A DNA stretch of 38,377 bases from the NCBI GenBank assembly GCA_038062115.1, contig JBBTXS010000023.1:1-38377 (forward strand). The letters are read 5' to 3'. This DNA comes from Patescibacteria group bacterium (GTDB taxonomy: Bacteria; Patescibacteriota; Microgenomatia; Levybacterales; UBA12049). This document shows, one piece after another, positions 1 through 17,623 of this stretch. Position numbers and translations under genes: made by a program. Position 1 is the first letter of the stretch. Each line of letters opens with the position of its first letter. The notes beneath the pieces were generated by a model. The model saw only the letters and a list, made by a program, of their open reading frames with translations, did no database searches and was not told the DNA's origin.

Positions 1-336
1 ACTGCACTGACTCGTGCTATTCCTCCGAAGTCTGCTCTTTGTGTCCAGGTGTTTATGTTCGGATCATACCTCCAGAAATCTTTTTTATATGCACCATCCT
101 CTCCGTGTCCCGTACCAATATATCCTTTGCTCCCAATTCCAAAACCAACTGCATTGACTCGTGCTGTTCCTCCGAAGTCTGCTTTTTGTGTCCAGGCGTT
201 TATGTTCGGATCATACTCCCAGAAATCTTTTTTATATGCACCATCGTATCCCGTACCAATATATCCTTTGCTCCCAATTCCAAAACCAACTGCACTGACT
301 CGTGCTATTCCTCCGAAGTCTGCTCTTTGTGTCCAA
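1..336 (-). repeat. Tandem coding repeat (147/141-bp period) encoding Kelch blades
   Basis: ACTGCA(C/T)TGACTCGTGCT starts at 1, 148 and 289; encodes GFGIGSKGYIGTG..W.YDP...WTQ(K/R)ADFGG. Confidence 0.9.
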
Positions 337-881
337 GGTGGCGGAGTAGGAGTGGGTGTAGGGGTTGGAGTAGGAGTAGGGGTGGGGGTGGGTGGGTTTA
401 GTAAAAGCTGCGCTATTCCTACCGAGTCAACTATTATGTACCTAGTTTGGTTATATCCAGTCATAGCAATAGTTCCACCTCCACTAACGCCTCCAGTAAT
501 TACTGTAAAGAATAACTTTGTAACATTTGTATCTGGGTAAGGAGCAAATGTAATATTGTTTGGAAGAGTAGTAGTCTGAAGTGGATAAGAATTACCCGAA
601 CATACAACGTTTAAGGTATAGTTCGAACTTGCAATAGAAATCTCAACACTATAGCCATCTAGCTGATTTACGCAAACAGGTGGTTTTACCTGAGAATTAG
701 CTCGAGATTTTGCAAGCTGGATCGTAGTTACTAGCTCTTGAGTTGCCGCTTGCAGAGATTGCGACTGACTGTATGTTCTATACGACGCAATGCCAATTAT
801 AGATAAAAACGCAATGCTTGCAAAAACCACAATAAGCTCGATAAGGGTGAAGCCCTTTTTGATATTTGATATTTTGATCAT
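1..881 (-). CDS. Minor type IV pilin (FimT/GspH-like) fused via a Pro-Thr linker to Kelch repeats; 3' end lies outside the window
   Basis: Absent from the ORF track. Manual translation from ATG 881: MIKISNIKKG|FTLIELIVVFASIAFLSIIGIASY...NPPTPTPTPT...PPWTQRADFGGIARVSAVGFGIGSKGYIGTG...DFWEYDP; ATGA overlap with the upstream pilin stop. Confidence 0.9.
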   Translation of the reverse strand, partial: MIKISNIKKGFTLIELIVVFASIAFLSIIGIASYRTYSQSQSLQAATQELVTTIQLAKSRANSQVKPPVCVNQLDGYSVEISIASSNYTLNVVCSGNSYPLQTTTLPNNITFAPYPDTNVTKLFFTVITGGVSGGGTIAMTGYNQTRYIIVDSVGIAQLLLNPPTPTPTPTPTPTPTPTPPPWTQRADFGGIARVSAVGFGIGSKGYIGTGYDGAYKKDFWEYDPNINAWTQKADFGGTARVNAVGFGIGSKGYIGTGHGEDGAYKKDFWRYDPNINTWTQRADFGGIARVSA

Positions 882-1408
882 GGGTTTTTGAGAGTAAACG
901 ACCAATTATCATAAGGGGCTGTATCGTCGCACGGCGCAGTACTTGTTGTATCTTTCTGTGAATCACTAGTATTTTCTAAACAACCAATTAACTTATAAGT
1001 TCCAGCAGTAGGCGTGTATCTATAGTTAAACGGCACTGTATTTAATGGGTCGCAAGGAACACTCTGCATGTATACTGCTGCCCCATCTTGCCATGTTGTA
1101 CCGCACCCTGGTATTGAGGATGGATAAACACTTTTATCTGATCTATATATTTCAAGAGCTGCCTGAATGTTGCGAAGATCAGACTTTCTTTGCCCATCCC
1201 GCGCCCGACTCTTAACACCTACAAAATTTGCCACAAGAAATGTTGTTAGTATTCCGATTATTGCTATAACCACCAAAAGCTCAATTAGAGTAAACCCAGC
1301 ACCACTTGATCTACTAAGAGAGTAAGAATTAAATAGATAGTCCGTTTTTCTAGAATTACACAAGTGGTGCTGGGTAAATCCCTTTTTATAATTGAAAATT
1401 TTTTTCAT
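878..1408 (-). CDS. Type IV pilin / GspG-like pseudopilin with a 28-aa insertion in the leader
   Basis: GAG|FTLIELLVVIAIIGIL, ARDGQRKSDL..IQAALEIY, C-terminal Cys residues. Confidence 0.92.
   Translation of the reverse strand: MKKIFNYKKGFTQHHLCNSRKTDYLFNSYSLSRSSGAGFTLIELLVVIAIIGILTTFLVANFVGVKSRARDGQRKSDLRNIQAALEIYRSDKSVYPSSIPGCGTTWQDGAAVYMQSVPCDPLNTVPFNYRYTPTAGTYKLIGCLENTSDSQKDTTSTAPCDDTAPYDNWSFTLKNP
1295..1374. mobile_element. 80-bp MITE in a pilin leader (14-bp TIR, TAAA/TTTA duplication)
   Basis: TAAA(1291-1294) CCCAGCACCACTTG...CAAGTGGTGCTGGG TAAA(1375-1378). Confidence 0.9.
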
Positions 1409-1914
1409 GGCGTTACATTTCCACTTGACACTCCATAATTACAAACTCCTCCGCAAGCAGTATTGCTTAGTCCAATAAAACTTAGGCTAGAACACGCTTT
1501 TCCGCTATTGCAGGCTTGCGGATCTTCCTCTCTATCTAGATTACCATACATATAGTATGATTGTCCATCTATTTTTACATAGTAAATATAAGTTTTATTT
1601 TTGCTTGGATCTTTAGGCAAAATTTTAATATAAGGAGCAAAACTTTCCCCCCACTCAACAGTTCTTCCATCTAATCGAACAATTTTACAGTTATTAACGT
1701 CCTGTAAACAATCTCCAGGATTTGGCGGAAACTTCCCAAAATCCTCGTAATATTGTTTGATGGCTCTTTGAATTTGTGCAAGATCGGATTTCCTCTTGCT
1801 ATCATTTGCTTTTTGAATCTGTGTAATTGGATCGATTAAGATAACTGCTATTATTGTCGAAATCCCAATAATGCCGATGATAAGAATTTTGATAAGTGTG
1901 AAACCTTTTCTCAT
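1405..1914 (-). CDS. Type IV pilin / GspG-like protein (Lys instead of Glu at +5)
   Basis: Likely start ATG 1914 overlapping the pilD stop: MRKG|FTLIKILIIGIIG; KANDSKRKSDLAQIQRA; Cys-rich C-terminus. Confidence 0.85.
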   Translation of the reverse strand: MRKGFTLIKILIIGIIGISTIIAVILIDPITQIQKANDSKRKSDLAQIQRAIKQYYEDFGKFPPNPGDCLQDVNNCKIVRLDGRTVEWGESFAPYIKILPKDPSKNKTYIYYVKIDGQSYYMYGNLDREEDPQACNSGKACSSLSFIGLSNTACGGVCNYGVSSGNVTP

Positions 1915-2762
1915 CTTCCTTGCAATAAAAAAGGAAACACTTTTTGCAATATCACTTCTCCCCAAAATAATGCTATAAATGTTCCAATTACCAAAAATGG
2001 TCCAAAAGGTATTGTTGAACCTTTGAATTTTTTCTTCTTTCCCAAAATTAGTATTATAGAAATTACAGCGCCTGTCAAGAAAGCAACATATAAAGCAACT
2101 ACGGTTTTTGGAAAACCCAATATTAGTCCTATTAAAAATGCTAGCTTAACATCTCCAAAGCCCATGCCGCGTCCGCGAGTTGCTAAAAAAATTAAGAGAA
2201 AAAAGAGAAAAGACCCAAGAGCCGAAACGAGGGAAAGTATTAAGTAGTTAGTATTAAGTATTATGTATAAAATCGAAACTATAACTGCAGAATAAGTGAT
2301 TTTATCTGGAATAATTCCGTATTTTAGGTCAGCGAAAAAAACTACAATAAAGCTTGAGAAAATAAAAAGATAGAAAACCAACCCCAACGATTCACCTCCG
2401 AGGAGTCGCTCCGCCAAGTACCGTACGGTACCTGGCTCCGCAACACCTCGGAGGTGGAAAAAGGACTCCTCCGAGGCGAACGATTGCGTAAAAATAATTG
2501 CTGAAACAAACATTATTCCCGTTACAAGCTCCACTAGAGGATAGTAATACGAAAGGGGAACGCGGCAGTAGCGGCATCTAGCTTTTAATGAAATAAATGA
2601 TAAGAGGGGAATTAAGTCGTACCATCTAAGTGTTTTCTTGCAGGATTCACAATAAGATCTTCCGATGAGGAAAGATTCGTCTCTAGGCAGTCTGTCGATT
2701 AAAACATTTAAAAAACTTCCAACACCAACCCCTAGAACAAAGATTAGAAAAACTTCTACCAT
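1911..2762 (-). CDS. pilD: Prepilin peptidase (A24 family)
   Basis: GSFLNVLIDRLP, CxxC pairs, DLIPLLSF, FFADLKYGIIPD, GMGFGDVKL, IPFGPFL. Confidence 0.96.
   Translation of the reverse strand: MVEVFLIFVLGVGVGSFLNVLIDRLPRDESFLIGRSYCESCKKTLRWYDLIPLLSFISLKARCRYCRVPLSYYYPLVELVTGIMFVSAIIFTQSFASEESFFHLRGVAEPGTVRYLAERLLGGESLGLVFYLFIFSSFIVVFFADLKYGIIPDKITYSAVIVSILYIILNTNYLILSLVSALGSFLFFLLIFLATRGRGMGFGDVKLAFLIGLILGFPKTVVALYVAFLTGAVISIILILGKKKKFKGSTIPFGPFLVIGTFIALFWGEVILQKVFPFLLQGR
2391..2480. repeat. Family C palindrome, in-frame in pilD
   Basis: TTCACCTCCGAGGAGTC...ACACCTCGGAGGTG...GACTCCTCCGAGGCGAA; relatives at 17431 and 23647. Confidence 0.85.
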
Positions 2763-2780
2763 GTAAATAGAATAGCATAC

Positions 2781-3323
2781 TTACGGACACGTAGTTGCTC
2801 CTGCTGCGGGCGCGCTTGGAGATTCCTTGAATTTACTACTAGCAGAATCCCAACACCAAACAGCACCCGCGGGCGAATTATATAACTTTCCCCAAACCAC
2901 TGCCGAACAAGTTCCAGGATCACAAGTAGTGGAACGTTGATAATTATAATCTGTTCCATCTGGTTGCATGGGCAATGGATCTAGATCTTTGCTTACTACC
3001 AGATTTTGAAGAGGAGGACTGCTAACGTCTGGATATTTACCCTCATTTGTTGTAAGGTATGCTTTAAGAGCATGGACTATTTGACTCATATCTGTTTTAA
3101 CATTCGCCTCTTTTGCTTGATTAATATTTCTTAAAGGATTAACCGCTACAATAACCGCCATTGCCAAAATACCAATTATTACCATTACTACAAGAAGCTC
3201 AATAAGCGTAAACCCAGCACCACTTAAGTTTTTATTAATAGTATTGTCAAATAAATACATAAATATTTTTTTATTGAATAAGTGGCGCTGGATAAACCCT
3301 AATGTAGACAGTTTTATTTTCAT
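2781..3323 (-). CDS. Type IV pilin with a 28-aa insertion in the leader
   Basis: GAG|FTLIELLVVMVIIGILA..VAVNP; paralogous to 3842..4345. Confidence 0.92.
   Translation of the reverse strand: MKIKLSTLGFIQRHLFNKKIFMYLFDNTINKNLSGAGFTLIELLVVMVIIGILAMAVIVAVNPLRNINQAKEANVKTDMSQIVHALKAYLTTNEGKYPDVSSPPLQNLVVSKDLDPLPMQPDGTDYNYQRSTTCDPGTCSAVVWGKLYNSPAGAVWCWDSASSKFKESPSAPAAGATTCP
3213..3292. mobile_element. 80-bp MITE in a second pilin leader (TAAA/TTTA duplication)
   Basis: TAAA(3209-3212) CCCAGCACCACTTA...TAAGTGGCGCTGGA TAAA(3293-3296). Confidence 0.88.
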
Positions 3324-3381
3324 AACTCTAGTTCACAATTAGTACAACATAATTTATTATGCTTGTCAATATAAATAATAG

Positions 3382-3532
3382 CTGACATTACCCCAGTTTT
3401 GCCTCAAATTACTTATGTCATTGCGATCAGGCGAAGCCTGAGAAGCAATCTCTTTTTTCACAGTGGGATTGCCACGTCGTCCCGCTTCGCGGGACTCCTC
3501 GCAATGACAGGTACAAACTGGGGTAATGTCAG
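3382..3532. mobile_element. 151-bp MITE, 18-bp perfect TIR, 9-bp TSD, enclosing a family A palindrome (3416-3509)
   Basis: CTGACATTACCCCAGTTT...AAACTGGGGTAATGTCAG flanked by AAATAATAG at 3373-3381 and 3533-3541. Confidence 0.92.
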
Positions 3533-3540
3533 AAATAATA

Positions 3541-3640
3541 GTATATATTCAGTTCTTACCAATGAAGCTGTCATTTCGATCAGGCGAAGCCTGAAGCCTG
3601 ATCGCAATGACAATTCCTTTATCAAATCCTGAACGATTAC
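3541..3640. mobile_element. Degenerate MITE enclosing a shortened family A palindrome (3569-3612)
   Basis: Shares TATTCAGTTCTTACCAATGAAGCTGTCATTTCGA with the element at 15090; ends CTGAACGATTAC. Confidence 0.7.
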
Positions 3641-3683
3641 AAAATAAAAAAGAGGTGGGTGATTTTTATATTAATCTAGTAAA

Positions 3684-3782
3684 CCCCGCACCCCGAGCTT
3701 ACGCTCGGGGCATTAGGGGTTCGCTTCGCGGAAATAATCCATTCATCCCTGACCTTACGGTCAGGGCATTCTGGGTGCGGGG
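3684..3782. mobile_element. 99-bp intergenic MITE of the CCC..GGG/TAAA family with two internal hairpins
   Basis: TAAA CCCCGCACCC...GGGTGCGGGG TAAA; hairpins CCCCGAGCttacGCTCGGGG and CCCTGACCttacGGTCAGGG. Confidence 0.85.
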
Positions 3783-3841
3783 TAAAGCAATTGAGGACAA
3801 GATTTTTGATTAGCGAGGCTCATGGACACACACGATCGCTA

Positions 3842-4345
3842 CTAACATGTACTAGTTGCGAGTGTTGGTTGTGTAATAGTTGACTTTAACACACCATTCG
3901 TAGAATCCCAACAGAACCAAGTGGCAGCATACACATCAAAAAGATTACCCCACACTACTGCATTTGTGCCATTTGACCCATAACAATACTCAGCTGCCGC
4001 TCCTTGAGCCCCAGCAGGGTTTACAGAAGTACACGGTGTAGCTCCTGCCTGCTGTTTTGGCATGGTTTTGAGCTCCCCGGCAGTGAGAAGAACGATCAAT
4101 GTAGCAGGATAGGCAGGTGTCCCCGTTGTACCCGTTGAGGTGAAGTATATTTGCAGGGCATTTACAAGCTGACCCATGTCAGACTTAAGATTCGAATCTT
4201 TTGCTTGATTTATCTTCTTTACTGGATTGATAGCAACAATAATAGCTGCTGCTAAGATCCCTAAAACTGCAATGACTATTAACAATTCTATCAATGTGAA
4301 GGCTTTTTGGGGATTACTGAGTTTTAAATTAAAGAGTTTTTTCAT
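3842..4345 (-). CDS. Type IV pilin (candidate major pilin)
   Basis: QKA|FTLIELLIVIAVLGILAAAIIVAINP. Confidence 0.92.
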   Translation of the reverse strand: MKKLFNLKLSNPQKAFTLIELLIVIAVLGILAAAIIVAINPVKKINQAKDSNLKSDMGQLVNALQIYFTSTGTTGTPAYPATLIVLLTAGELKTMPKQQAGATPCTSVNPAGAQGAAAEYCYGSNGTNAVVWGNLFDVYAATWFCWDSTNGVLKSTITQPTLATSTC

Positions 4346-4463: not shown

Positions 4464-5672
4464 TTACTGAATCGAAGATGTGAGTTTGTAGATTGGAGTA
4501 ATTATCGAGAAAATTAAAAAACCCACTCCAACACCCAATGTAACCATAATAAGAGGTTCCATAGCTGTAGTTAGTGTTTTAACTGCCTGATCAATTTCGC
4601 CCTCAAAATACTCCGAAGCCTTAAGAAGTGTTTCGTCTAGTTTTCCAGTTTGTTCACCAACTTTTACAAGCTGAATAAGGATCGGAGGAAAAAGTGTATA
4701 AACAGACAAAGCGTCTCCAACAGTAACACCTTTCTCAACGCGCCTTGATGTATCTAATATTGCATTTTTAAAATGAACATTGCCAGCAATATCTGCCGTT
4801 TCTGCCAAAGACTCCACCACCAAGGTGCCGCTTCCTATTAAAAGCCCTAGAGTCCTTGAAAACTCAGCAAGTATTGTTTTTTTAATAATAGGAGCAAGAA
4901 TTGGGAGTTTTAAAACTAGGTTATCAATTAACATTTTACCCTCTTCGGTTTTACTCAAACGACGAAGTAAAAAAGAAAATAGAACTCCCGCGCCTAAAAT
5001 AATTGGCCAAAATGCAACAGTAAGGTGTGACATAGAAACCACTATTTTGGTAGCCAAGGGTAATTCAACGTTTAAGTCTTTATAAAGATCAGTAAGTTTT
5101 GGAATAACAAAAATCATCATTATAAAAACAACTACAATCATCATAATAACAACTATGGTCGGGTAGGTAAAAGCTGCCTTAATTGTGCCTCTTAATTTTT
5201 GCTCTTTTTCCAAGTTGTCTGCAAGGCGAATCAATGACTTATCCAAAAGTCCCGAGGCCTCCGAAGCCTTAATAATCGACACATAAACTGTAGAAAACAT
5301 ATCTGGATGCTTGAGAAGTGCCTTAGAAAAAGACAAACCCTCTTGTATATCGGTAATAACTCCATCTATTATCTCTCTCATTGCCTCGTTGGTAGCTTGA
5401 TTTTTAAGAATGTCTAAAGATTTGACTAGTGTCAGACCAGAAACTAGCATTAGAGACAGTTGCCTAGTAAAAACTAATATGTCTTTTCGTCTTACCTTAT
5501 TTGAAAAAAAGGGCAACATGCTAAGAAGTCTATTGTTTTCTTTTTTTGTTATTGTTATGGGGAAAAGCTCTTTGCTTCTTAAATAATATGCTGCATCTCT
5601 GATGTCGTTTGCTTCTATAATGCCAGACAATATTTTGCCCTCCCCTGTTACAGCTTTGTAAAATAACTTCAT
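4464..5672 (-). CDS. pilC: Type IV pilus platform protein PilC (GspF family)
   Basis: FTRQLSLML.SGL.L, YPTIV, GEQTGKLDE, EPLIM; 402 aa. Confidence 0.95.
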   Translation of the reverse strand: MKLFYKAVTGEGKILSGIIEANDIRDAAYYLRSKELFPITITKKENNRLLSMLPFFSNKVRRKDILVFTRQLSLMLVSGLTLVKSLDILKNQATNEAMREIIDGVITDIQEGLSFSKALLKHPDMFSTVYVSIIKASEASGLLDKSLIRLADNLEKEQKLRGTIKAAFTYPTIVVIMMIVVVFIMMIFVIPKLTDLYKDLNVELPLATKIVVSMSHLTVAFWPIILGAGVLFSFLLRRLSKTEEGKMLIDNLVLKLPILAPIIKKTILAEFSRTLGLLIGSGTLVVESLAETADIAGNVHFKNAILDTSRRVEKGVTVGDALSVYTLFPPILIQLVKVGEQTGKLDETLLKASEYFEGEIDQAVKTLTTAMEPLIMVTLGVGVGFLIFSIITPIYKLTSSIQ

Positions 5673-5683
5673 GTTAAATTTAA

Positions 5684-6751
5684 CTACCCTATCATTCTTA
5701 AAAGATAATCTTGGTGTAAAGCGTAGCTTTTAGCAGTCTCAAGGCTTATGCTACCTGCTAATACTAAAGAGGCGAGAGATGCCTCAAGAGTAATCATGCC
5801 AGCCTCCTGACTAGTTTGTATAACTGAATCTATTAAATGAGTTTTTCCTTCTCTAATGTTACTCGAAACCGCACTTGTTCCAATTAAAACCTCAACCGCT
5901 GGAATTCTGCCGCCCCCTATCTGTTGCAAAAGTCGTTGTGAAATAATACCCTTAAGAGTTGAGGCAAGTTGAATTTTGATTTGTGGTTGTTGCTCCGACG
6001 GAAAGGAATCTATAATTCTGTCTATGCTTTGTGAAGCAGAATTTGTATGAATTGTCGAAAAAACTAAATGCCCAGTTTCGGCAATTGTTATTGCTGCAGC
6101 CATAGTTTCTGGATCTCGCATTTCTCCAACTAGTACTACATCTGGGTCTTCACGAAGACAAGATTTAAGAGCCGAATGCCACGAATGGGTATCTATGCCC
6201 ATGGCTCGCTGAGATATGACACTTTTCCCAGGAGGATAAACATATTCAATCGGATCTTCTATTGTTAAGATATGACAGGAACGACTCAGATTAATCTCAT
6301 TTATAATTGCAGCAAGGGTTGTTGATTTACCGTGTCCTGTGGGGCCTGTTGCTAAAATAAAACCTTGTTTTAAATTCGCAAACCTATGAACAGTTTTGGG
6401 CAAGTGGAGATCTTCGATTGTACGAATGCTTGGCTCCAAAAATCTAAAAGCGCCCGATAAATATCCCCGTTGATAATAAAGATTAGAGCGAAACCTACCT
6501 AAATTTTTGCTGCTTCCGCCTTCGAATGTAAAGGAAAAATCTAGCTCCTTGTTAGCAAGCAACATCTCCTTCTGCGACGAATTAAGCAAAGAAAAAATCA
6601 TTGTTTCTATATCTTGTACAGTTAAAGGTTTATAGCTTGAAATATATGCTAGGGAACCATCAATTCTAACGGTTGGTGGAATACCTTGCAACAAATGCAA
6701 GTCGGATGCGTTGTTCTTTATAGTAACTGCTAATAATTCTTGAATGCTCAT
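5684..6751 (-). CDS. pilT: Retraction ATPase PilT
   Basis: ASDLHL, GPTGHGKSTT, TIEDPIEY, LREDPDVVLVGEMRD, AETGHLVFSTIHT, SNIREGK. Confidence 0.95.
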   Translation of the reverse strand: MSIQELLAVTIKNNASDLHLLQGIPPTVRIDGSLAYISSYKPLTVQDIETMIFSLLNSSQKEMLLANKELDFSFTFEGGSSKNLGRFRSNLYYQRGYLSGAFRFLEPSIRTIEDLHLPKTVHRFANLKQGFILATGPTGHGKSTTLAAIINEINLSRSCHILTIEDPIEYVYPPGKSVISQRAMGIDTHSWHSALKSCLREDPDVVLVGEMRDPETMAAAITIAETGHLVFSTIHTNSASQSIDRIIDSFPSEQQPQIKIQLASTLKGIISQRLLQQIGGGRIPAVEVLIGTSAVSSNIREGKTHLIDSVIQTSQEAGMITLEASLASLVLAGSISLETAKSYALHQDYLLRMIG

Positions 6752-9669: not shown

Positions 9670-11157
9670 GTGATTACAAACAAACTTAAAAAACTATTTT
9701 ATTTTCCAATAGCATCCTATTTCAAATTTTTTGCCCAAATTAGATTAACGCGTTGGAAGCCGAGAATTATTGTGGTAACTGGTTCGAGTGGCAAAACAAC
9801 ATTACTGCATCTTATAGAATCCCAACTTCAAAATAAAGCAAGATACTCTCATTTTGCAAATAGTAGCTATGGAATTCCGTTTGATATTTTGGGATTAAGA
9901 CGCAAGAACCTAACATTAGACGAATGGCCATATCTCTTTTTGGCTGCTCCTTTTAAGGCATTTAAAAAAACTCCAAAGGAAAAACTATATATTGTCGAAG
10001 CAGATTGCGATAGACCTTATGAAGGAAAATTTCTAGCGAATTCATTAAGACCTGAGATTACACTATGGACAAATGTCAGCAGAACCCATACAGCGAATTT
10101 TGATTATCTTGTAAAGAAAAACGAATGTCATTGCGAGGAGGAACGACGAAGCAATCTCACCAGAAAGAGATTGCCACACCAGTCTGCGGACTGGTTCGCA
10201 ATGACAAAGAATAGAAAGAGAAAAACTACCTTTAAGGTTGAAGAGGCGATAGCTCACGAGTTTGGATACTTTTTAGAAGAGACCAAATCTCTTGCTATTA
10301 TTAACAGCGACACTAAGCTAATTAAGCAGCAGTTAACAAGATCAAAAGCATCGGTCAAAAGTGTAACCCAAAAAGGTCTTACCGCCTACAATGTTTTTAA
10401 AGACCATACCGAGTTTAAAATTAATGGGGAAATTTACTCAATTAACGCTTTGCTTCCAAAAGAATCATCTCTTTCAATCCAAATGACCTTAATCCTTCTT
10501 GATTATCTCAAAATTAAACCCGACAACTCATTCTCCAAATTTAGCCTTCCACCTGGAAGGTGTAGTTTGTTTAAGGGAATCAAAAATATTACTATAATAG
10601 ATAGTTCTTATAACGCAACGCCAGATGGGGTTAAGTCTATACTTGAGATGTTTAACCTCTATCCTAGCAATAAGAAATGGCTAGTTTTAGGGGATATGAT
10701 TGAACTTGGCAACGAAGAGCAAGAAGAACATGAGAAATTGGCCGATGTAATTAATTCGATTAAATTAAATAAAATTATATTAGTTGGGCCTAGACTTTCA
10801 AAATATACCTATCCAAGACTAAAGGAACAGGGATTACGTATTTATTCTTCGAGCGATCAGGCGAAGCCTGAGAGTCGAGAAGTCTTATCAGAAAATAGTT
10901 CTCGACAAGACGGGTACCGTACGGTAACCCGTCAAGCTCGAACAATAAGAAATCCTGTAACTGAAAAGTTTATAATGCCGAAAGATGCATTAGATTATTT
11001 AGGCAAAAATTTACAGGGCGGTGAAACAATCTTATTTAAGGGAGCTAGATTTCTAGAGGGTATAATAGAACACTTATTACTTAATAAATATGATATTAAT
11101 AACTTATGCCGAAGAGAATTAGTTTGGCGAGAAAGGCGAAAAAAATGGGGAATTTAA
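9670..11157 (+). CDS. murF: Mur ligase (MurF-like) with two in-frame insertions
   Basis: VTGSSGKTT, PGR, IIDSSYNATP, LVLGDMIELG, ILFKG. Confidence 0.85.
   Translation: MITNKLKKLFYFPIASYFKFFAQIRLTRWKPRIIVVTGSSGKTTLLHLIESQLQNKARYSHFANSSYGIPFDILGLRRKNLTLDEWPYLFLAAPFKAFKKTPKEKLYIVEADCDRPYEGKFLANSLRPEITLWTNVSRTHTANFDYLVKKNECHCEEERRSNLTRKRLPHQSADWFAMTKNRKRKTTFKVEEAIAHEFGYFLEETKSLAIINSDTKLIKQQLTRSKASVKSVTQKGLTAYNVFKDHTEFKINGEIYSINALLPKESSLSIQMTLILLDYLKIKPDNSFSKFSLPPGRCSLFKGIKNITIIDSSYNATPDGVKSILEMFNLYPSNKKWLVLGDMIELGNEEQEEHEKLADVINSIKLNKIILVGPRLSKYTYPRLKEQGLRIYSSSDQAKPESREVLSENSSRQDGYRTVTRQARTIRNPVTEKFIMPKDALDYLGKNLQGGETILFKGARFLEGIIEHLLLNKYDINNLCRRELVWRERRKKWGI
10126..10206. repeat. Family A palindrome (81 bp), in-frame in the Mur ligase
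   Basis: TGTCATTGCGAG..GAAGCAATCTC..GAGATTGCCAC..CGCAATGACA; peptide CHCEEERRSNL...WFAMT. Confidence 0.92.
10842..10948. repeat. Family D palindrome with two nested mini-hairpins, in-frame in the Mur ligase
   Basis: TTATTCTTCGAGCG..AGTCGAGAAGT..AGTTCTCGAC..GCTCGAACAATAA. Confidence 0.9.
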
Positions 11158-14248: not shown

Positions 14249-14305
14249 TACTGTTTAGTTATATCTATAACGATCCCGTATTGTTAAGATATCTACACAT
14301 CGGTA
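14249..14305 (+). repeat. Family B 57-bp palindrome, left flank of RAYT
   Basis: GTTATATCTATAACGATCCCGTATTGTTAAGATATCTACACATCGGTA. Confidence 0.88.
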
Positions 14306-14326
14306 AAAATGTGGTTCACTAAATAT

Positions 14327-15001
14327 ATGGCGCAACGAAAAACTATACTGGCAACCAATGAAATCTATCATGTTTATAACCGTGGTGTTGAGAAGAGACC
14401 AATATTTTTAATCAAACGAGATTACGCAAGATTTACTGAAACAACAAATTACTATCGTTTTGCAAACTGCCCTATGAGATTTTCATACCTCAAGCTACTT
14501 CCACATGAAGAAAAAGATAATATTTTCAAAAGATTGGAGAGCGAATCAAAAAAACTAGTTGACATCTTTACCTTCTGTTTTATGCCAAACCATATACATT
14601 TTTTATTAAAACAATTAGTTGATAAAGGAATTTCTAAATTTATGGCAAAGATTACAAATGCTTTTAGCCATTATTTTAATACTCGACATGATAGGATTGG
14701 TCATCTTTTTCAAGGGAATTTTGGCGCAGTAAGAATGGAAACTGACGAACAATTAATTCACGTGTCTAGATACATTCATCTTAACCCTGTCTCTTCTTAT
14801 TTAATCGAGATTAAAGATCTTCCAAACTATGAATACTCATCTTATCCTGAGTACATAAACGGTGCTTCTGGCTTTACTAATACAAAAGAGGTGCTTTCTT
14901 ATTTTAAAAATAAAGATGAATACAGAAAGTTTGTTGAAGATCAAACAGACTATGCTCGAAAACTGGAAAATATCAAACACTTAACATTAGAACAAGCCTA
15001 A
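14327..15001 (+). CDS. REP-associated tyrosine transposase (Y1 HUH, IS200/IS605 TnpA superfamily)
   Basis: YHVYNRG, FMPNHIHFLL (HUH), GHLFQG, RYIHLNPV (catalytic Tyr), YSSY; flanked by palindromes; start 14327 or 14309. Confidence 0.9.
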   Translation: MAQRKTILATNEIYHVYNRGVEKRPIFLIKRDYARFTETTNYYRFANCPMRFSYLKLLPHEEKDNIFKRLESESKKLVDIFTFCFMPNHIHFLLKQLVDKGISKFMAKITNAFSHYFNTRHDRIGHLFQGNFGAVRMETDEQLIHVSRYIHLNPVSSYLIEIKDLPNYEYSSYPEYINGASGFTNTKEVLSYFKNKDEYRKFVEDQTDYARKLENIKHLTLEQA

Positions 15002-15014
15002 AAACACCTAATTA

Positions 15015-15072
15015 TACCGAAGTGTTATATCTATAACGATCCCGTATCGTTAATGTAGCTATACCCTCAGTA
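15015..15072 (+). repeat. Family B palindrome, right flank of RAYT
   Basis: TACCGAAGTGTTATATCTATAACGATCCCGTATCGTTAATGTAGCTATACCCTCAGTA. Confidence 0.88.
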
Positions 15073-17267: not shown

Positions 17268-17623
17268 TGTCATGCTGAACTTGTTTCAGCATCTCGAGTG
17301 AAACGAGATCCTGAAATAAATTCAGGATGACAAAAAGTACCGAAGTGTTATATCTGTAACGATCCCGTATCGCTAGTATATCTACACCCACATCACAAAC
17401 TCCTGCTCGAGCGGCTTTTTGTGCCTCTACATCCACCTCGAAGGAGTCCTTCGGCCACCTTCGAGGTGTTACGAAGGGATGTACCAGACGGCGCGTCCCG
17501 AAGTGACTCCTCGAACCGGAAGAAGCTTAAAATTGTCATTGCGAGGATCAGGCTTTGCCTGAGACGAAGCAATCCCAACCATTTGAGATTGCCGCGCGAA
17601 ACGTTGTTTCGCTCGCAATGACA
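17268..17623. repeat. Intergenic cluster: family A (17268-17332), B (17338-17389), C (17431-17520), A (17534-17623)
   Basis: Each unit matches copies elsewhere in the window. Confidence 0.9.

Follow-up and report, generated by a model that had tools for sequence, protein, structure and literature searches.

Hairpin elements at the prepilin cleavage codons of a patescibacterial genome, and their GIY-YIG-coding relatives

We report a small hairpin element lodged in a pilin gene of a Patescibacteria group bacterium, at positions 1291-1378 of the 38,377-nt stretch of contig JBBTXS010000023.1 (assembly GCA_038062115.1) that was analysed here and is called the window below. The element sits at the codons at which the prepilin is cleaved, and its downstream end rebuilds the cleavage site. 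With a probability of about 0.8, we read it as a non-coding member of a mobile hairpin family that occupies prepilin cleavage codons, whose encoded peptide would leave with the leader, and which would have been moved by, or be descended from, a longer form encoding a GIY-YIG nuclease. An earlier note, made from the sequence of the window, had proposed the insertion and a relation to DDE transposons; the insertion stands, now as the small end of a larger phenomenon, whereas the DDE relation does not. The host genome (G000 in our set) comprises 1.04 Mb in 36 contigs at 35.9% GC, and our cross-genome scans cover 245 genomes of the host's order.

The element and the rebuilt cleavage site

The features on which the argument turns are the following.

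878..1408, minus strand: prepilin gene 1, T2SS-G / type IV pilin-like, 176 aa; invaded, with the leader MKKIFNYKKG kept upstream of the element
1291..1378, minus strand, inside that gene: TTTA (1375-1378), 80-bp hairpin element (1295-1374), TTTA (1291-1294)
1361..1374, minus strand: 5' arm in gene orientation, CCCAGCACCACTTG, read as T-Q-H-H-L; perfect 14-nt inverted repeat
1295..1308, minus strand: 3' arm, CAAGTGGTGCTGGG, read as ..S-G-A-G; its terminal codon GGG is the new Gly-1
2781..3323, minus strand: prepilin gene 2, 180 aa; invaded, with the leader MKIKLSTLG F IQRHL..NLSGAG|FTLIELL
3209..3296, minus strand: TTTA (3293-3296), 80-bp element (3213-3292), TTTA (3209-3212), at the equivalent G|F-T site of prepilin gene 2

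On the coding strand of gene 1, GGA TTTA is followed by the 80-bp element (1374 to 1295) and then by TTTA CT. The inverted ends match perfectly over 14 nt, or 15 nt counting the adjoining A and T (arms 1294-1308 and 1361-1375, 100% complementary and 52 nt apart), and the window contains a single occurrence of the core-end pattern, as compared to 0.00 expected from 100 shuffles. Together with one TTTA, the element makes up 84 nt, or 28 stop-free codons, placed between Gly-1 and Phe+1, and a single open frame runs from the old start codon through the 10-residue leader and all 28 added codons. The open reading frame (ORF) reads MKKIFNYKKGFTQHHLCNSRKTDYLFNSYSLSRSSGAG|FTLIELL and its product MKKIFNYKKG-FTQHHLCNSRKTDYLFNSYSLSRSSGAG|FTLIELL.., where the last element codons, GGT GCT GGG, and the second TTTA recreate G|F-T. 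The Pfam N_methyl and TIGR02532 models align to residues 37-58, that is, to the second G|F and not to the first. As in other type IV prepilins, Gly-1, Phe+1, Glu+5, and a hydrophobic helix are present, and a prepilin peptidase is encoded in the genome. These data confirm the presence of the element, its exact boundaries, and the regeneration of G|F-T, and with them three details of the earlier note: that the element and TTTA add exactly 28 codons, that the terminal GGG supplies a new Gly-1, and that the repeated TTTA restores Phe-Thr.

The twin copy in prepilin gene 2, absent from the earlier note, has the same length and the same codon position. Its ends carry two mismatches, which would be G-U pairs on the sense strand, and its loop holds an in-frame ATG 16 codons before Phe+1. 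A third pilin of the host genome (G000:C6) carries a copy that is identical to the second window copy at 77 of 80 positions, the flanks being identical at 55/90 positions downstream and 19/30 upstream. As single-stranded DNA (ssDNA), the window copies have folding energies of -15 to -18 kcal/mol (z -4.0 to -6.5). Shuffling left the loop stop-free in 25% of trials for copy 1 and in 13% for copy 2; when inverted, either loop has 3-4 stops.

Empty sites

To find uninterrupted sites, assembled contigs from four groundwater runs were aligned to window positions 600-3600. One run, X9, is from another study and holds a relative ~93% identical to the window. An X9 contig joins position 1372 to 1287, skipping 84 nt, and another X9 contig joins 3208 to 3293, likewise skipping 84 nt, with 7 letters that fit either side; both window pilins are thus empty in this relative by exactly the element plus TTTA. 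The difference at both sites, 80 nt of element and one TTTA, fits either a TTTA duplicated at each event or one borne by the element.

The database agrees. Removal of the element had been predicted to yield the leader MKKIFNYKKG|FT, and the database ortholog of pilin 1, P0003 (149 aa, 76% identical over aligned columns), has the leader MKKIFNYKKG|FTLIELL. Empty-site orthologs, by which the earlier note had suggested that the insertion be checked, are therefore found for both window sites in X9 and, with its short leader, in P0003. The ortholog of pilin 2 in another organism, P0121, carries a loop of the copy-1 type at the equivalent site, and the pilin 2 site has therefore been hit independently by different family members. 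The inserted element has moved more than once.

Small, lacking an ORF of its own, bounded by terminal inverted repeats, and present in multiple copies with empty counterparts, the element has the properties of a miniature inverted-repeat transposable element (MITE), as the earlier note had called it. The term is apt for an inserted, mobile, non-coding inverted-repeat element; as to its other implication, searches with the transposase profiles PF01609 and PF01797, to which this part of the work was limited, found no transposase-coding element with the same ends.

The hairpin family

Script scans of the host genome define a family foot conserved over 9 nt, YCCNGCRCC .. GGYGCNGGR, with a free loop length. 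Host-genome sizes run through 23 and 26 bp (the foot with a 5-8-nt loop), 44, 68, 80, 96-102, and 111 bp, with twelve longer elements and a series that descends to 23 bp. All members are flanked by direct TTTA..TTTA (TAAA..TAAA on the other strand), never by a mixed form. Beyond the foot, the stems differ between subfamilies yet stay complementary, that is, they co-vary. The subfamily with the foot CCCCGCACC is represented in the genome by seven near-identical copies: six measure 99 bp, and the seventh is a 44-bp deletion form. With respect to the TTTA strand, all seven loops point the same way. The window contains this relative between genes:

3680..3786, minus strand: intergenic 99-bp relative (element 3684-3782) with ends CCCCGCACC..GGTGCGGGG and TTTA on both sides; ssDNA fold -29 kcal/mol, z -6.1

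In 23 of 26 scored copies, the base after the right-hand TTTA is the same as the element's first base (TTTAT for T-type copies, TTTAC for C-type copies). The direct repeat is therefore effectively 5 nt long, or else target choice co-varies with the hairpin foot. Of the 245 genomes, 29 contain the exact-ended pattern when loops of 4-100 nt are allowed, with 77 matches in all as compared to 0 for the reversed control pattern; a scan for the same ends, which the earlier note had put forward as a check, thus returned further TTTA-flanked copies. Copies away from pilins stand directly behind stop codons (TAA-A being TTTA on the other strand) and also in spacers.

Two functions proposed for the family were rejected. 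A role as DNA uptake sequence does not fit, since unpaired ends show no excess, and the 150 loose matches are mostly noise. Nor can transcription termination be the general cause of the minimal hairpins, several of which either follow a stop codon but have their T-rich tail on the other strand, or separate two genes that run in the same direction.

Some members lie in genes other than those for pilins. In genome G037 (loci L001, L009, L014, and L020), a 23-26-bp hairpin plus TTTA adds 9-10 in-frame codons (..[TI]Q[HR]..GAGF) within ORFs of 495-824 codons, one of them gatA-like. In an epimerase-like gene of the host, at its GGAGF|IG Rossmann motif (G000:C4:62600-62780), a 96-bp member parts the frameshifted old 5' end from a new start: the new ATG..KKILVTGGAGF begins inside the 'loop', and the gene's own G-A-G-F codons coincide with the element's right arm. 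This arrangement also occurs at G180:C4:269143 and G199:C56:5031, and seems to be conserved in three genera.

Targeting of pilin sites and upkeep of the frame

When the pattern was extended by the pilin codons TTT-ACN-YTN-RTN-GAR, 18 matches were obtained in 12 of the 245 genomes. By manual count, pilin sites account for 13/21 C-type copies and 5/56 T-type copies. The host genome has 23,369 TTTA sites, of which 8 are pilin sites, and those 8 hold 4 of its 11 exact-ended copies (P 4.5e-12 under uniform choice, and 6e-9 counting TTTAC sites only). Enrichment at pilin sites over other TTTA sites, a further check suggested earlier, is thus extreme.

All three uninvaded pilin genes of the window have TTC-ACN at the cleavage site:

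1405..1965, minus strand: uninvaded pilin-like gene, MRKG|FTLIK..; GGT TTC ACA at the site
3842..4345, minus strand: uninvaded pilin; GCC TTC ACA at the site (4303)
3..905, minus strand: uninvaded pilin-like gene that extends past the window edge; GGC TTC ACC at the site (854)

Genome-wide, Phe is encoded by TTC in 16.7% of cases, as compared to 5/10 at the site in the uninvaded Phe+1 pilins of the genome (P = 0.015), a weak hint that loss of TTTA protects a pilin. The earlier note had held that the three uninvaded pilins use TTC-ACN and hence lack TTTA; this is correct, but elsewhere in the genome four uninvaded pilins have TTT-ACN (C8:13907, C9:35356, C9:37476, and C9:38046). A missing TTTA therefore cannot account for all empty pilins.

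An ATG-started open frame leading to GAG|F is retained in 18/18 pilin-site copies. Among the 12 that do not stand behind a GIY-YIG ORF, 10 add a multiple of 3 (P = 5e-4 against 1/3) and 9 of those 10 are stop-free through the old leader, in counts that are not all of independent events, since hairpin families inherit their element lengths. The prepilin cleavage codons have been hit repeatedly and independently, with a translatable leader preserved in every case.

Long pilin 'leaders' of another kind are found in proteins P0006, P0010, P0024, P0035, and P0063. These are translated pieces of different repeat families that end in ..MT..G|FT, and the real start is probably the downstream Met at the repeat end.

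A GIY-YIG coding form with the same ends

In the host genome, a pilin-like gene on contig C8 (FTFIELILY..) has two tandem elements upstream, a 102-bp hairpin and then, farther upstream, an element of ~303 bp. The latter has the same left end, and its loop is a GIY-YIG ORF. The ORF matches the Pfam GIY-YIG family with an E of 1.4e-17 over 210 nt; it is single-domain and in keeping with a length of about 90-100 aa, but continues into the pilin. Its nearest solved structure is 1zg2_A, UPF0213 protein BH0048 (E 9e-4), and its NCBIfam match falls below the cut-off. When 8 pilin-linked GIY-YIG ORFs were aligned, the Tyr, Tyr, Arg, and Glu positions were conserved except for one Tyr-to-Cys replacement.

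A search of the order with this ORF found a close subfamily (63-78% identical) in nine genomes. In 7 genomes, a stop-less GIY-YIG ORF stands directly behind TTTA + CCCAGCACCAC.. and runs through ..ELKKRIG..SGAG|FT into a pilin. This coding form measures about 300 bp, its partner pilins are of at least five different kinds, and in 3 of the 7 genomes the old short leader still precedes the left end (e.g. MITQRG|F and MRKAFSILKSTAG|F). Empty orthologous pilins are found in congeners (G180 as compared to G182, and G189 as compared to G187); in the latter pair both genes lie behind pilD, and the difference consists of the GIY-YIG element plus TTTA. A database search with the junction region retrieved 39 proteins (90% identity clusters), and in all 39 a GIY-YIG C-terminus is followed by a ..GAG|FTxxE.. 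pilin; some of these fusions, from Patescibacteria and Uhrbacteria records, are labelled 'GIY-YIG nuclease family protein'. In two genera whose GIY-YIG proteins are 67% identical, the FTFIELILY pilin that follows the GIY-YIG element is still whole, at 163-170 codons.

The hairpin family is specifically associated with this stop-less ORF at the same pilin site. A hairpin end lies beside the ORF at 8/9 close-subfamily loci as compared to 1/21 distant GIY-YIG loci (p = 1.3e-5), and hairpin matches occur in 8/9 subfamily genomes as compared to 21/236 others (p = 1.2e-7), one match adjoining the ORF itself in six of the eight; shared kinship among genomes of a single order makes these cross-genome statistics overstated. 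In G109, a 62-bp pilin-site element keeps 28/29 nt of the GIY-YIG 3' end, a score reached by 0/300 shuffles, and internal deletion can therefore turn the coding form into short elements. What would tie the window copies to the coding form is their shared foot and ends, the TTTA flanks, the shared target, and this one deletion derivative, rather than homology of the loops.

We rejected the idea that the window loops derive directly from the GIY-YIG element, since a 14/17 match noticed by eye did not hold up when tested (z <= 1.6); the short element of G109 is the only clear deletion derivative.

The host has other small GIY-YIG genes inside inverted repeats of their own, at G000:C16:2539-2763, C16:16237-16464, C7:38870-39203, and C8:46255-46476. 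Three of the four have TGTCATTGCGAG-type repeats, and the C7 copy is split by another small element. The flanks of the fourth are near the published Neisseria NTS consensus (TGTCATTCCCGCGAAAGCGGGAATCCAG), matching at all but the first and last-but-one positions.

Proposed mechanism and alternatives

We propose that the hairpin element integrates at the TTTA formed by the Phe+1 and Thr+2 codons (TTT ACN) of a prepilin gene. With TTTA repeated and a 3' arm that reads GGT GCT GGG in that frame, every such insertion restores ..S-G-A-G|F-T-L-I-E. Translation would start at the old ATG. PilD-type peptidases cut G|F ahead of the hydrophobic helix. The first G-F would be ignored by the prepilin peptidase because neither a hydrophobic helix nor a Glu+5 stands behind it, and, going by the substrate rules of PilD, the neighbouring peptidase would cut at the rebuilt site. 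There it would discard the added peptide or, in the coding form, release the nuclease; the mature pilin would be unchanged, and a longer leader would be the insertion's only cost. Most likely, the family was moved by, or descended from, the stop-less GIY-YIG versions of about 300 bp, which resemble the Ssn nucleases compared below and would be translated as a giant leader. The GIY-YIG protein may thus itself be what moves the elements.

A bolder form of this proposal, which we regard as tentative and as likelier to be wrong than right, is that GIY-YIG hairpin transposons have specialised on the TTT-A of pilin Phe+1. The nuclease would be made as a giant prepilin leader, the peptidase would free both the nuclease and an unchanged pilin, and the 80-bp copies would be non-autonomous offspring moved in trans. 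If true, introns and inteins would be joined by a third strategy that lets selfish genes persist in conserved genes without harm.

Several points weigh against the proposed origin and mechanism. The loops of the window copies gave no significant local alignment to any of seven GIY-YIG elements or tails (z <= 1.6), nor are the loops of copy 1 and copy 2 significantly similar to each other by local alignment (z 0.2). Hairpins without a close GIY-YIG homologue occur in 21 genomes, including G037 and G162 with 8 copies each. The four empty TTT-ACN pilins and the kinship behind the cross-genome statistics count on the same side. GIY-YIG nucleases hydrolyse DNA, and we know of no joining activity among them. 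The internal ATG of copy 2 could give a 16-residue leader instead of the long one. No RNA run is listed with the stretch; that translation begins at the old ATG and that the peptidase cuts at the second G|F are inferences.

The internal ATG also bears on an alternative that we consider unlikely, in which the old start is abandoned: translation would begin inside or just before the loop, the element would supply the leader, and the upstream MKK..G-F would be untranslated or a dead-end peptide. It draws support from the ATG of copy 2, which has an equivalent in the C6 copy, also in frame and 16 codons before Phe+1, and from the frame-shifted pilin-site copies in G000:C8 (MDNQ..), G224, and G158, which must start inside the loop. 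The loop of copy 1, however, contains no ATG, and the 10/12 copies in frame with the old leader, 9 of the 10 stop-free through it, also speak for continued use of the old start. The 82-nt insertion in G012, which is in frame with the upstream ATG only in a shifted frame, fits a compensating 1-nt change in an A-run.

It is improbable that the elements are classical MITEs of a DDE transposon, with TTTA a true 4-bp duplication from staggered cuts and the GIY-YIG ORFs mere passengers. Such an origin would agree with the terminal inverted repeats, the direct TTTA on both sides, the empty sites that differ by the element plus 4 nt, and sequence subfamilies such as that of the seven near-identical 99-bp-type copies. 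It would not readily explain members of 23-26 bp, which are hardly more than two 9-nt arms, stems that co-vary beyond the core instead of keeping one sequence, the single orientation of the 99-bp subfamily against the asymmetric TTTA (7/7), or the identity of the base after the right TTTA with the first element base (23/26). No DDE gene with the element's ends was found in the host genome with PF01609, the only DDE profile searched. The single PF01609 gene, on G000:C7, was rejected as partner; a contig edge cuts it, and its visible end is unrelated to the element. The earlier note's idea of a piggyBac/IS1380-type DDE relation is therefore set aside, and in place of the transposase gene that it had envisaged between these ends, the coding relatives carry a GIY-YIG nuclease gene.

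We think it very improbable that the hairpin is kept in pilin genes for a function of its own, as an attenuator of transcription or translation or as an invertible on/off switch. The ssDNA hairpin is very stable (-17 to -18 kcal/mol, z -5.3 to -6.5), the two arm mismatches of copy 2 would still pair as G-U on the sense strand, inversion of either loop introduces the 3-4 stops already mentioned, and minimal members followed by T-rich tails look like terminators. Yet the close relative in X9 does without both copies, the same hairpins occur in unrelated places, some after stop codons with the T-tail on the wrong strand, and no strand-changing joint at the arms appears among the contig rows listed, which derive from assembled contigs, so that rare excision or inversion products would be invisible in them. 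That the invaded pilins are inactivated genes on the way to decay, their open frames recent accidents, is hardly credible: the genome has many pilin paralogs and might tolerate single losses, but the frame is usable in 18/18 pilin-site copies, the FTFIELILY pilin has stayed intact in two genera while its GIY-YIG proteins diverged to 67% identity, and the mature part of pilin 1 is stop-free and 76% identical to its empty ortholog.

Other features of the window

The window begins with a minus-strand type IV pilus / pseudopilin cluster of pilT, pilC, five pilin-like genes, and a prepilin peptidase gene. Its members not yet listed are:

5684..6751, minus strand: pilT
4464..5672, minus strand: pilC
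1911..2762, minus strand: prepilin peptidase, PilD type (Pfam A24_N_bact E 1.5e-30, Peptidase_A24 E 1.7e-15), 500 bp from the element

Within pilD, an in-frame 64-nt GC-rich palindrome at 2393-2456 codes for ..HLRGVAEPGTVRYLAERLLGG.. and is a candidate for a further palindromic insertion that keeps the frame; the window has palindromes like it at 17434-17468 and 10912-10929. Contigs of runs X1 and X8 join 2281 to 2504 within pilD, skipping 222 nt, or 74 codons. The C-terminal part of the pilin-like ORF 3..905 (window 1-540) consists of a (PT)n linker and tandem repeats of ~47 residues (WTQ[KR]ADFGG..GFGIGSKGYIGTG..YKKDFW.YDP). Nested inverted repeats of other kinds fill the inter-pilin spacer at 3375-3640 (arms 3375-3399/3515-3539 and 3416-3432/3596-3612, ends TGTCATTGCGA..), where the summed contig depth is 150-605 as compared to ~30 nearby; these repeats are therefore common across the community.

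Downstream, between a FemAB-like gene and gyrB, lies a gene at 14309-15001 (plus strand) for a 230-aa Y1 protein that is like IS200 or REP-associated tyrosine transposases (RAYTs; REP, repetitive extragenic palindromic). The same short-hairpin repeat of ~30 nt stands on both sides of it (near 14258-14288 and 15024-15053), a pair separate from the pilin element. This gene, the only PF01797 gene of the genome, was considered as a partner of the pilin element and rejected, since its flanking hairpin repeat differs.

Implications

The prepilin site would offer mobile DNA a new mode of hiding within a coding region, in which the element copies a host protease site and the host removes the inserted peptide. 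Exact empty sites provide natural evidence of movement for hairpin repeats linked to small GIY-YIG nucleases, a mobility only suggested in the Ssn paper (PMC11893778). We also bring to light a class of GIY-YIG::prepilin fusion ORFs whose database label merely names the nuclease family. For annotation, odd long leaders of Patescibacteria pilins of the form GFTQHH..SGAG|FT become readable as insertions. The invaded genes further constitute natural tests of leader length for prepilin peptidase, at 38 residues in the window pilin and about 85-130 in the fusions. DNA uptake is the presumed role of patescibacterial pili, and in Neisseria, Ssn acts on incoming single strands. A functional tie between nuclease and pilus is therefore worth testing.

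Comparison with known systems

Our literature search, which left most subscription journals outside its reach, found no description of a mobile element in a prepilin leader or of a GIY-YIG-pilin fusion. The closest parallel is the Ssn family of single-domain GIY-YIG nucleases of ~94 aa, which bind a directional hairpin repeat (NTS/SRM) as ssDNA and cut a few bases upstream (PMC11893778). The ssn genes are usually flanked by their own repeat, a layout that the authors liken to an insertion sequence, with mobility only hypothesised (Chenal et al. 2025, PMC11893778), and the Neisseria repeats are rarely intragenic (2%; PMC11893778). The pilin family shares with Ssn a small GIY-YIG gene that has a dedicated hairpin repeat at its sides; further copies of the repeat are dispersed through the genome, and non-palindromic flanks make it directional. 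The pilin family differs in that the pilin-linked ORF is stop-less and fused to prepilins, and in that the insertions have exact empty sites. The pilin hairpin falls outside the published SRM motif: a regular expression for the motif matched 29 times in the host genome, once exactly to the NTS consensus, and not in copy 1, copy 2, or a minimal element. Over 66 aa, the pilin-linked GIY-YIG protein shares 39% identity with a host GIY-YIG protein flanked by NTS-like repeats.

REP/RAYT systems and the IS200/IS605 elements likewise consist of hairpin repeats with a fixed flanking tetranucleotide and strict orientation. The pilin family resembles them in being hairpin-based, with a fixed tetranucleotide flank and strict orientation, and differs in that no Y1 gene carries pilin-type ends in the host genome, with its single PF01797 gene. 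SPRITE is a terminator-like repeat of Streptococcus pneumoniae. The minimal 23-26-bp members are similar to it in resembling intrinsic terminators, with a GC-rich stem and a T-rich tail, but several members are oriented such that they could not terminate the adjacent gene, and the family also includes members of up to 111 bp and coding forms of about 300 bp.

Rickettsia palindromic elements (RPEs), as summarised in a review of MITEs, are in-frame palindromic insertions of about 150 bp in coding genes (PMC10969869). The likeness is one of behaviour, and we claim no relation in sequence: in both cases an in-frame palindromic insertion adds a peptide and the gene survives. The RPE peptide stays in the mature protein and has no preferred processing site, whereas the pilin element rebuilds a cleavage site and its peptide should go. 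Inteins, self-splicing introns, and IStrons are selfish elements, often nuclease-bearing, that live in conserved coding sequence and are removed after transcription or translation. The pilin elements differ from these in that removal would fall not to self-splicing but to the host's own leader peptidase, acting at a site that the element has copied.

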